From IMG/VR virus record IMGVR_UViG_2541047435_000013: a stretch of DNA of 6,437 bases. The stretch is one strand, 5' to 3'. Position 1 is the first letter of the stretch. Each line of letters begins with the position of its first letter. Below are positions 3,001-6,000 of this stretch, piece by piece. Made by a program: the position numbers. This DNA is from a virus (lineage: Duplodnaviria; Heunggongvirae; Uroviricota; Caudoviricetes).

Positions 3001-6000
3001 GGCAGTTCCCATACCAGCAGATAATTCATCAGCGTCCGCTGCAACTCGTTTTTATTTCCTTCACGCAGAGACTGAGCTTTAGTCTTCGCTCCTGTAACAG
3101 GTTCAATGTCATAAACAATCATCGGTGGCGAACAGAATGATTCTGCCTGCAACGTACTTTCGGCACTGAACACACGTCGTCCGGACGTCAGAAACGCCTC
3201 CTGTGGCGTTGAGGGAAACTCCTGCTTCATTTCCTCACGCTGTTCAGTTTCCTTATTGATGTACCACTGCTTCTGTTCATCAGTAAGCGTGATGTTCATT
3301 GCCTTCTCAACCGCAGAAAAATACGTCATTTTTTCCCGTGACAGCTTCAGCCCGCTTTCCGGCACTCTGGCGCTGTATTTAGGATCCTGCCACCAGGCGT
3401 AAAAATGGAATTTATAATCCTGTGCCGTCAGCAATAAGCCTGATGCAGTGATCTCCTGTGCTCGGTTACTCATCTCGTAAAAATCACCACCCACGCCTTC
3501 AGCAGTGGACTCATCAAAAATAATGCATTCATCAGAGACGGCATTAAGCGTACCGGTTCGCAGTTCTTTCGCCTTAGCCGGATATTTCGCGCAAATTTTG
3601 CCGTGCTCTGAGATATGCAGGCGCTGCACCGTACCTGAACGGAATGAGGTTGCCACCTGGATACTCGAGCCGTGACCAAACAGGATATAGCCACCGCTGG
3701 CACCGCTACGACGTTCAACGATGGTGAATGAGGCTCTCAGCCAGTCAGGGAGATGATCAAACGGTACAGCAATTTTTGTGCGGAAAATTTCACTGGCAGC
3801 CTGTTTATCCTGAGCGACGATCCCGCATTTGAGATGCGGAATGAATAATGCCTGGTCGAGAAGATAAATATCAATGGCTGTGGAAAATCCCAGCTGGCGC
3901 GCTTTCAGGATAATATTTTTATTGTGCATGCTCCGGAACAACTGGCGCTGCGCCGGTCGCATTCTGAAGGTGACCAGTTCACCTTTTTCGTTCTGTATTT
4001 TGTAGAGATGATTGAGCCGCCACCAGGGATTGCTCAGTTTAGTCATGATGAACAGACGTTGTTCAGCCTCGGTCATTTCTGACGGCTCATCACATCGCGG
4101 TTCATTCTTCCGGAATGTCATCCAGTCTCCCCGAATTACTCATTTCATGCAGCGATGACACGATGTCACTGACAGGCGTAACAACGCCCCGACGCTGGCT
4201 GGTCAGAATATCGGTTTCAGCTCTGAGTTTATCTCTGGCGGCGTTGATTCTTTCCCGGTCAGCACGAAGTTTTGGTGCTGTCTCAGCCAGGACGTCCAGC
4301 GTCAGCAATGAGCGTTCAATTGACTCGATACGGGCAATATTCCGGTCAAGGGCCTGTTCAGCTTTGAGTATTTTGTCGTAAAGAGCAACACGGGTTTCCA
4401 CGTCAGTTGCCTCTTCCAGGTCGGCGAACATCCCTTTAAGTGCCTTAGTTACTGAAAGTGCGCGGGCCCGGGTGAACACCAGTTCATCGAACAGCACCAT
4501 GTCGGACGCATCATCCATGAGGTTATCTGCCTCAAGATACTTCGCATATCCACGGTGTCTTACGGCGTGGGTGTTTCGCTGAGAAAAAGCGTTTGAAGGT
4601 GGTAAAAGTCGGGAACCACGAATCCGTTTCGTTTCTGCCGAATTTGCGCAGTTTTTTTCAGAGTTTTTTGCGCATTTTTCATCGCCGGAACCCGCGTCAT
4701 TGCAGGGTTCTTCATCTGAGATGTCATGATCGATTTCATGATCGGTTTTATGATCAATTTCATGATCGATTTTGCCCATTTTTATACGGGTTCTGGCGGT
4801 GTTGTAATTAATCTTTTTCTTCCGGCACCAGTCCAGTAATGTTATTCCCGTTTCGGCATGTTCGCGTCGGAATGCCTGCTCCAGCTTTTTCCAGTCCAGC
4901 TTTGCCATGTCACGTTCTGACGTCCTGTGTTAAAAACTGATGCATAATGACCGCTGTGATTTTTCAGATTTCACACAGCAGCACCATATTTGATCGATAT
5001 TTGCACAATGCGGTTGTTTTATCCGGTTTCTTCCACCACCGCACCGGACAGGCGGCTTCGCGGGAAATCGCTCCCATCTCGTGAAAAATGAGAAAACCCG
5101 GTGTGCATCGTTTTTGATTATCCCCGCACACTCCCGCAGAGAAGTTCCCCGTCAGGGCTGTGGACATAGTTAATCCGGGAATACAATGACGATTCATCGC
5201 ACCTGACATACATTAATAAATATTAACAATATGAAATTTCAACTCATTGTTTAGGGTTTGTTTAATTTTCTACACATACGATTCTGCGAACTTTAAAAAG
5301 CATCGGGAATAACACCATGAAAAAAATGCTACTCGCTACTGCGCTGGCCCTGCTTATTACAGGATGTGCCCAACAGACGTTTACTGTTCAAAACAAACAG
5401 ACAGCAGTAGCACCAAAGGAAACCATCACCCACCATTTCTTCGTTTCTGGAATTGGGCAGAAGAAAACTGTCGATGCAGCTAAAATTTGTGGCGGCACAG
5501 AAAATGTTGTTAAAACAGAAACCCAGCAAACATTCGTAAATGGATTGCTCGGTTTTATTACTTTAGGCATTTATACTCCGCTGGAAGCGCGGGTGTATTG
5601 CTCACAATAATTGCATGAGTTGCCCATCGATATGGGCAACTCTATCTGCACTGCTCATTAATATACTTCTGGGTTCCTTCCAGTTGTTTTTGCATAGTGA
5701 TCAGCCTCTCTCTGAGGGTGAAATAATCCCGTTCAGCGGTGTCTGCCAGTCGGGGGCCGGTTGCATTATCCACGCGGGCGGTGCCGGTGGCTTCACGCAC
5801 GGGACCTGGACAGGTGGCGTTGATCCGCAGGCTGCGGTAACCAGCGGCAACGTCAGCGCGAAGAGTTTCATTTTCAGCTCTCGCATCGGCTAATTCCCTC
5901 GAGTATCTGGCATCAAGTGCAGCAACATCACGCTGGCGCTGCTGCATATCAGTAATGGTTGCATTTGCCAGCTCCAGCTCACTGACTTTTTTATCGCGCT

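Follow-up and report, generated by a model that had tools for sequence, protein, structure and literature searches.

A tandem GATC hexamer array in the small-terminase gene of a 933W-type Shiga-toxin phage as a candidate P1-like pac site

In this study, we analyzed a tandem repeat within terS, the small-terminase gene of IMG/VR virus record IMGVR_UViG_2541047435_000013, a stretch of 6,437 nucleotides (hereafter the window) which represents the late region of a short-tailed 933W/Sp5-type Shiga-toxin-converting (Stx) phage. Four 12-bp units of this gene encode an Asp-His repeat, and each of them carries a YGATCA hexamer. Comparison of the corresponding genes revealed that a hexamer array is under DNA-level selection across the TerS family, at a fixed position and in association with the helix-turn-helix (HTH) domain of the protein. 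Based on sequence comparison and on analogy with phage P1, it is likely that the four units form the part of a P1-like pac site that is recognised in headful packaging of the 933W type. The repeat and its hexamers are located in the window as follows.

4726..4773, minus strand: four 12-bp units encoding KIDH, EIDH, KTDH and EIDH (terS residues 46-61)
4763..4768, minus strand: hexamer 1, CGATCA (GATC at 4764-4767)
4751..4756, minus strand: hexamer 2, TGATCA (GATC at 4752-4755)
4739..4744, minus strand: hexamer 3, CGATCA (GATC at 4740-4743)
4727..4732, minus strand: hexamer 4, CGATCA (GATC at 4728-4731)

The units read AAAATCGATCAT (K-I-D-H), GAAATTGATCAT (E-I-D-H), AAAACCGATCAT (K-T-D-H) and GAAATCGATCAT (E-I-D-H), followed by D. 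Tandem Repeats Finder reported the array at 4720-4772 (period 12, 4.4 copies, 82% matches, score 78) and, together with translation of the open reading frame (ORF), bore out the fourfold D-H peptide repeat that had been noticed in terS by an earlier, sequence-only reading of this DNA. The span of 4725-4772 given there proved to be one base off the exact codon span, and the description of the DNA repeat as nearly perfect was somewhat generous: the units are identical to one another at 9-11 of 12 positions, with GATCAT invariant in all four. The GATC sites begin at 4728, 4740, 4752 and 4764, a spacing of exactly 12 bp, and the four YGATCA of the array in the window comprise one TGATCA and three CGATCA. 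The array occupies terS nt 141-182, and the HTH-coding part ends at about nt 132. Of 3000 first-order Markov simulations of the window, 39 had at least four GATC within 40 bp and only one had four that were equally spaced. The totals of GATC and GATCAT across the whole window were not elevated, and what is unusual is the local cluster only.

To place the repeat in its family, terS DNA was collected from one genome per species (30 loci), from IMG/VR (80 loci) and from specific contigs for selected proteins. Most lineages, including Escherichia, Citrobacter, Salmonella, Brenneria, Serratia, Yersinia, Xenorhabdus, Morganella and Aeromonas, have five to eight TGCGCA hexamers immediately downstream of the part that encodes the HTH. 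In 74 distinct loci, the density of TGCGCA was 21.8 per kb within terS nt 120-320 versus 0.39 per kb in the remaining 315 kb, a 56-fold enrichment, and the hexamer array was restricted to terS nt +100 to +300. The same hexamer is read in three frames, namely xxT-GCG-CAx, giving x-A-Q/H (195 occurrences), TGC-GCA, giving C-A (70 occurrences), and xTG-CGC-Axx, giving V/L/M-R-x (58 occurrences). Codon choice is strongly biased at these places. Ala before Q/H is coded by GCG in 198 of 213 linker cases versus 22% elsewhere in terS, and the codon preceding that Ala ends in T in 199 of the 213, with 11 different amino acids. We also looked for homologues that keep the Asp-containing peptide with degenerate codons lacking GATC and found the opposite, as Asp before H/Q is coded by GAT in 96 of 98 linker cases versus 50% elsewhere.

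Synonymous recoding led to a similar picture. Linkers from 21 clusters below 80% identity were each recoded 2000 times, and in 19 of the 21 the observed hexamer count was never reached (mean about 0.4 versus 3-7 observed). A hexamer array was found in all 21 lineage clusters examined, the window having the YGATCA version plus two TGCGCA. Other hexamer types included TTCGCA in Pectobacterium, GTACGCA in Klebsiella phages, and YGATCA in 933W, Salmonella and a third lineage. The sequence-only reading had offered, as one origin of the repeat, that the DNA motif is selected and the peptide merely carried along, and this option fits both the family comparison and the parallel with P1 described below.

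Judged from sequence comparison, the YGATCA array of the 933W lineage is probably the GATC version of the element that is TGCGCA in most relatives. The two kinds of array lie at the same position of terS and have common flanks, AAA-N-hexamer-(R/T)-A. Two loci (L077 and L080) contain TGATCA in 12-bp register within a TGCGCA array; in L080, TGCGCA is found at 164, 176 and 200 and TGATCA at 188. Mixed arrays such as that of L080 may be intermediates of specificity switching. In Salmonella relatives (57-61% identity), TGCGCA precedes three to five YGATCA spaced by 12 bp, which encode KSDQ, KSDH, KNDH, ESDQ and KNDH; His and Gln alternate here through the wobble base of CAN, and GAT-CA is retained. 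In the window, TGCGCA or its likely derivatives and an additional CGATCA are located as follows.

4773..4778, minus strand: TGGGCA, codons M-G-K, one mismatch from TGCGCA (codon-layout comparison)
4669..4674, unstranded: TGCGCA, codons C-A in ...EKCAKN... (family-wide hexamer)
4645..4650, unstranded: TGCGCA, codons C-A in ...KNCANS..., 24 bp from the copy at 4669
4991..4996, minus strand: additional CGATCA between bor and terS, 84 nt before the terS start codon

By its codon layout, the TGGGCA at 4773-4778 is apparently a remnant of the TGCGCA that most relatives have at this place as CTG-CGC-AAA. The copies of TGCGCA at 4645 and 4669 are the only two in the 6437-base window and lie 58-82 bp downstream of the GATC array. 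In relatives whose HTH was swapped, and likewise in the GATC-class relatives from Salmonella, their counterparts have decayed; in the window, the two copies may be either the second half of the site or a recombination relic. Both are contained in a second array of 12-bp period at 4643-4679 (Tandem Repeats Finder, 3.2 copies). The CGATCA at 4991-4996 (ATCGATCA) resembles the repeat unit. Among 20 distinct loci of the GATC class, 14 have it upstream of terS; these are near-identical 933W-type sequences and hence not independent.

Within the family, the class of hexamer tracks the recognition helix of the HTH, with no exceptions in 74 distinct DNA loci and 107 proteins. The helix ...ARR(Y/H)(I/L)K pairs with TGCGCA, ...ART(R/Q)IK with YGATCA, and ...AKRYI(T/K) with TTCGCA or, in a Providencia phage, with TGCGAA/TTCGCA. 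In relatives that have an unrelated N-terminal HTH together with the same C-terminal core, the family hexamers are absent, and decayed forms (TGC-ACA or TGC-GTA) stand where TGC-GCA is otherwise conserved. The terS of Klebsiella phage vB_Kpn_Chronis (L123 1130-1300) encodes another HTH (...TEGAIRKRAKK...) and has seven GTACGCA in two reading frames, and a further terS with the ...TEGAIRKRAKK... type of HTH (L122 1590-1720) contains GTACGAAA repeats. Thus, the rule that an array follows the HTH may extend beyond PacA-like HTHs. A tentative extension of these findings, possible rather than probable, is that the ~200 bp at the terS 5' end would form a self-contained specificity module, consisting of the reader HTH and its array directly downstream, whose specificity switched several times (TGCGCA, YGATCA, TTCGCA/TGCGAA and GTACGCA) by co-evolution in cis, and that the switch to GATC in the Stx lineage would have put the start of packaging, like that of P1, under the control of Dam methylation.

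The pac site of phage P1 lies in pacA and contains seven TGATCA/G hexamers (HEX4 + HEX3), which are Dam sites recognised by the pacase, and synonymous mutation of these hexamers cut the P1 titre ~9-fold (PMC10028697). In the annotated P1 record, the hexamers start ~60 nt after the N-terminal HTH (...LNPNTARRYL...), with the array at pacA nt 194-233. They are translated in two frames as M-I-I-D-H, N-D-Q, G-D-H, N-D-R, D-D-H and V-I-T, and are spaced by 7, 12 and 15 in one cluster and by 12 and 11 in the other. The HEX4 and HEX3 clusters lie on either side of the cleavage site with a binding site for integration host factor (IHF) between them, and cleavage by PacA/PacB depends on Dam methylation. 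The HTH of the window TerS matched P1 PacA in BLASTP (E 0.009) and in hhalign (E 1.5e-4 over 42 columns), and a hidden Markov model built from the 933W-type family only matched PacA-like ORFs with E about 1e-12 and P1 PacA with E 1e-3. BLASTP detected no similarity between the rest of TerS and PacA or between TerL and PacB. As in P1 pac, the hexamers of the window are centred on GATC, lie about one helical turn apart, are placed inside the small-terminase gene just 3' of a homologous N-terminal HTH, and are translated as x-D-H/Q. Like P1, 933W also encodes its own adenine methyltransferase (L0094, an N6-type enzyme resembling those of T1 and HP1). Unlike P1, the window has its four hexamers, of which three are CGATCA, in a strict tandem of 12 bp, and its two TGCGCA 58-82 bp downstream contrast with the second GATC cluster of P1.

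All IMG/VR contigs were scanned, without any gene information, for triplets of TGATCA spaced by 12 bp, which yielded at least 120 loci. In 36 of the matches listed, the array was found in an ORF with a TerS/PacA HTH-profile N-terminus, just after the HTH. The PacA/TerS-like arrays among the matches listed have four to six hexamers and x-x-D-H/Q repeats (e.g. GDHNHDHSSDHASDHQNDH, RDQNSDQNSDQNSDHNGDQ and GDHHADHSDDHVGDHPSDHVSDH), and in many of the PacA-like relatives among them, as in P1, a smaller second cluster of GATC follows 110-150 bp downstream. Of the 36, 17 are full-length members of the TerS family of the window (E about 1e-46), which adds a third independent lineage to the GATC class; the remainder include PacA-like proteins of ~425 residues on ~90-kb contigs. 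As a separate observation, ~83 of the 120 matches listed (L126-L245) were outside PacA/TerS-like ORFs, including several on contigs of giant-virus metagenome-assembled genomes, some of which had up to 10 consecutive matches to the phased TGATCA pattern (L200).

If the four units serve as a pac site, the HTH domains of a TerS oligomer would bind the phased hexamers on concatemeric DNA, the bound TerS would recruit TerL, and TerL would make the first cut nearby, from which headful packaging would then proceed. Since the hexamer lies in the codon phase xxY-GAT-CAT, it is translated as x-x-Asp-His, and since YGATCA contains GATC, each hexamer of the window is a Dam site. In the most speculative step of this mechanism, the methylation state may gate cleavage as in P1; the evidence for such gating consists of the GATC in each hexamer and the N6-adenine methyltransferase gene of 933W.

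Several observations weigh against a pac function of the repeat. In the recoding test, the observed count was reached in the GATC-class clusters by 49 of 2000 recodings for the window (p about 0.025) and by 18 of 2000 for the Salmonella type. The window's own test is weak because D-H forces GAY-CAY, and hence the case for its repeat depends on equivalence to the arrays of its relatives. The covariation of helix and array is only partly independent because the two are adjacent and co-inherited, and among PacA-like proteins more widely it is TGATCA that accompanies an ARR helix, so that no single-residue code holds. Three units are found in about 30 Stx2a phage records, and the existence of variants with one to three units means that site number is not strictly constrained. 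Unlike in P1, a second GATC cluster was not found near the window array, the next GATC downstream being ~900 bp away (3823-4727 has no further GATC), and no match to the IHF consensus WATCAANNNNTTR with at most one mismatch was present at 4600-4800, although such a consensus scan is a weak test. In addition, the literature searched contained no member of this TerS family whose termini or pac had been mapped experimentally.

Among the other explanations, the one that survives best, which we consider unlikely, is that selection acts on the array as a DNA element with a role other than pac, for instance a Dam/SeqA-sensitive or TerS-autoregulatory operator for late-gene or terminase expression, or a binding array for another phage or host protein. 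The DNA-level evidence demonstrates selection on DNA and not which process uses the array. SeqA binds GATC pairs about one helical turn apart, which is the kind of substrate present in the window, and Dam affects 933W lysogeny. However, most hexamers of the family (TGCGCA, TTCGCA and GTACGCA) have no Dam site, and therefore Dam/SeqA cannot be the general reader. In addition, the array goes with the TerS HTH and is lost upon exchange of that domain, and the only homologous layout studied experimentally, that of P1, is a pac site.

The number of units varies between related prophages, as the sequence-only reading had anticipated: near-identical E. coli prophage proteins have 1, 2, 3, 4, 5 or 7 units, with a mode of 4. 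Simple duplication of existing units accounts for the forms with 5 and 7 units, and changes in copy number would arise by slippage or unequal recombination between units, so that the slippage expansion suggested by that reading holds as the source of the 1-7-copy variants. It is quite improbable that the whole repeat is the product of neutral replication slippage in a low-complexity disordered linker, with neither the DNA motif nor the peptide being functional. The range of copy numbers and the simple unit duplications would be expected from such a process, and so would a linker that is hypervariable and predicted to be disordered. But neutral slippage fails to explain the presence of the same hexamer in three reading frames from Aeromonas to Escherichia, the fixed synonymous positions under variable amino acids, and the failure of all 2000 recodings to reach the observed counts in 19 lineages. 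It is also at odds with the maintenance of four units in 40 of 43 loci collected and in 361 of 430 matching records (at least 99% identity), which come from 429 of 5426 complete E. coli genomes. Neutral slippage is thus disfavoured; it accounts for the copy-number variants, not for the conservation.

The protein was examined with an AlphaFold2 model of TerS built from a 19-sequence alignment, in which the parts that flank and contain the repeat are as follows.

4777..4908, minus strand: codons 1-44, N-terminal three-helix HTH with recognition helix ...NYNTARTRIK (AlphaFold2 and homology to P1 PacA)
4561..4773, minus strand: codons 46-116, linker predicted to be disordered, with the hexamers in its coding DNA (predicted local distance difference test score, pLDDT, about 30-47)

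The HTH helices were predicted at residues 6-20, 24-31 and 35-41 (pLDDT 76-88), and the C-terminal part forms a confident long-helix core (pLDDT >90). The D-H repeat segment, for which structure prediction had been proposed, is predicted to be disordered (pLDDT about 30), and its placement between the HTH and an acidic linker in the sequence-only reading agrees with the model. N-terminal HTH, variable linker and conserved helical C-terminal core together are the layout of the 933W-type TerS family (phrog_370), and the linker is hypervariable in the family alignment. At the position of the D-H repeat, most relatives have unrelated peptides (A-Q, V-R or C-A); for example, PhiR12_3, a 75%-identical E. 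coli relative, has no D-H repeat and has SAQKNAQKSAQ... in the same position. Considering the sequence comparison and the model, the Asp-His peptide is probably not the object of selection but a passenger tolerated in a disordered linker.

The sequence-only reading is partly supported: selection on the DNA finds support in the family, metal binding by the repeat does not, and a functional peptide is contradicted by His/Gln exchange, codon fixation and predicted disorder. Asp/His repeats are able to chelate metals, and D-H requires GAY-CAY, half of whose codings give GATC, so that the window alone is weakly significant; but a function of the Asp-His peptide itself (metal binding, or a pH-sensitive or acidic spacer) with incidental GATC is very improbable, given that His and Gln are exchanged freely with GAT-CA retained (D-H or D-Q, both from GAT-CAN, as in Salmonella KSDQKSDHKNDHESDQ and PacA-like RDQNSDQNSDQNSDH), that Asp is almost always GAT, that the preceding codon always ends in T or C, and that most homologues have other peptides at the same place, in a segment of such low pLDDT.

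The terS gene is also mosaic past the linker (residues ~95-112; P0004, L069-L075 and P0016/P0025 compared with the window), and the segments ...KRIRGSRLLPPSNAFSQ... and ...KRNSRSGNPHPVARFSD... each pair with either N-terminal type. Such mosaicism suggests recombination within or beside the linker-coding DNA. A solved relative of TerS was not found: both a PDB-chain sequence search and Foldseek with the AlphaFold2 model gave weak or generic coiled-coil matches only.

The proposed pac site of the window can be compared with other known systems. In P22 (gene 3) and in Sf6-, SPP1- or SF6-type phages, pac lies inside the small-terminase gene and is read by TerS, as is proposed for the window; the TerS proteins of the P22/Sf6/SPP1-type phages are, however, unrelated in sequence to that of the window. 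P22 pac is a single asymmetric site of ~22 bp, unlike the window array, and SPP1/SF6 involve multiple phased TerS contacts. The R-sites of lambda cosB are repeated sites bound by the N-terminal winged HTH of gpNu1, which positions the large subunit. They are similar to the proposed array in that several repeated sites would serve the N-terminal HTH of a small terminase, whereas cos packaging is not headful, the sites are outside the coding sequence, and the IHF site I1 is part of cosB. The same design, a site array for the N-terminal DNA-binding domain of a protein within its own gene, is found in the lambdoid ori iterons in O, and the 933W record (L120 13904-14027) has six ori iterons annotated inside gene O. 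These iterons differ from the terS array in that they are 18 bp long and serve replication initiation, not packaging.

'Headful (933W type)' is a class name based on TerL, and details of the initiation site are stated as unknown in a paper that uses it (PMC7317114); the class is assigned from TerL phylogeny (PMC7317114, PMC6029569). The literature searched contained no description of a 933W-type pac site, although older subscription papers were outside the search and an earlier description is possible. What appears to be new here, on the basis of sequence comparison and analogy, is the generalisation of P1-type hexamer pac sites to a large TerS family with several hexamer classes. Two published cases were considered as support and rejected: prophage Gally of LF82, with a mapped pac peak in termS (PMC9928086), encodes a TerS of 140 residues that is unrelated, and the paper on Morganella phage Mecenats66 deals with a different terminase clade.

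Phages of the 933W type carry the Shiga toxin genes of enterohaemorrhagic E. coli, and their TerL represents a recognised but mechanistically uncharacterised headful class. The pac site predicted here, four YGATCA at terS nt 141-182, possibly together with the two TGCGCA, is testable. A concrete pac site would permit terminus mapping and rational pac-minus/pac-plus constructs, and pseudo-pac sites could be predicted from it, as could lateral or generalised transduction from Stx prophages. Dam gating, if true, would link the production of Stx-phage particles to the Dam activity of host and phage. For the family as a whole, the pattern could provide a rule for locating pac by sequence alone in phages of Enterobacterales and Aeromonas and in P1-like phages, and a natural series of matched HTH/site pairs for studies of TerS specificity. 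A peptide repeat that would exist only through constraint on the DNA also calls for caution among annotators.

Some Stx2a prophages have an interrupted terS. In LC727869.1 (L004), an IS3-family insertion (orfA + orfB; inverted repeat TGAACCGCCCCGGG...) occupies 3165-4490 and sits directly after a three-unit repeat (...GATCATGACATC|TGAACC...), and the same arrangement is found in at least seven Stx2a prophage records (H91-H97). The terS gene is truncated at the insertion, the DNA beyond it is not terS, and these prophages are probably packaging-defective. This insertion is also what lies behind the records that match terS residues 1-55 only, for which a mosaic junction in the repeat had been considered and was rejected. 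Similarly, the Stx phage records PV1894xx, which end inside terS, were rejected as evidence of a mapped end, as their start at the terL ATG is a deposit convention.

The packaging genes of the window are located as follows.

4102..4908, minus strand: terS, small terminase subunit, 268 residues, 807-bp ORF (phrog_370 match and identical annotated Stx phage DNA)
2415..4121, minus strand: terL, large terminase of the '933W-type headful' class (phrog_2 and phrog_24361)
340-2415, same strand, downstream of terS and terL: P22-type portal gene

The identification of the gene as terS in the sequence-only reading was confirmed by a full-length match to phrog_370 'terminase small subunit' (E 3.8e-125) and by the terS annotation of identical DNA in Stx phage records. 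Many phages, among them Stx2 phage 86, VT2phi_272 and PA2, have a small-terminase gene with 100% identity to this DNA, and for 933W L0112 the identity is 99.8%. Pfam and NCBIfam have no family for TerS or TerL. Upstream of terS are bor, Rz and Rz1, and the order terS-terL-portal is that of the 933W-type TerS family, in which terS is directly upstream of a 933W-type TerL. The terS and terL genes overlap by 20 nt (4102-4121) and terL and the portal gene by 1 nt (at 2415), and such tight overlaps are compatible with translational coupling of the packaging genes.

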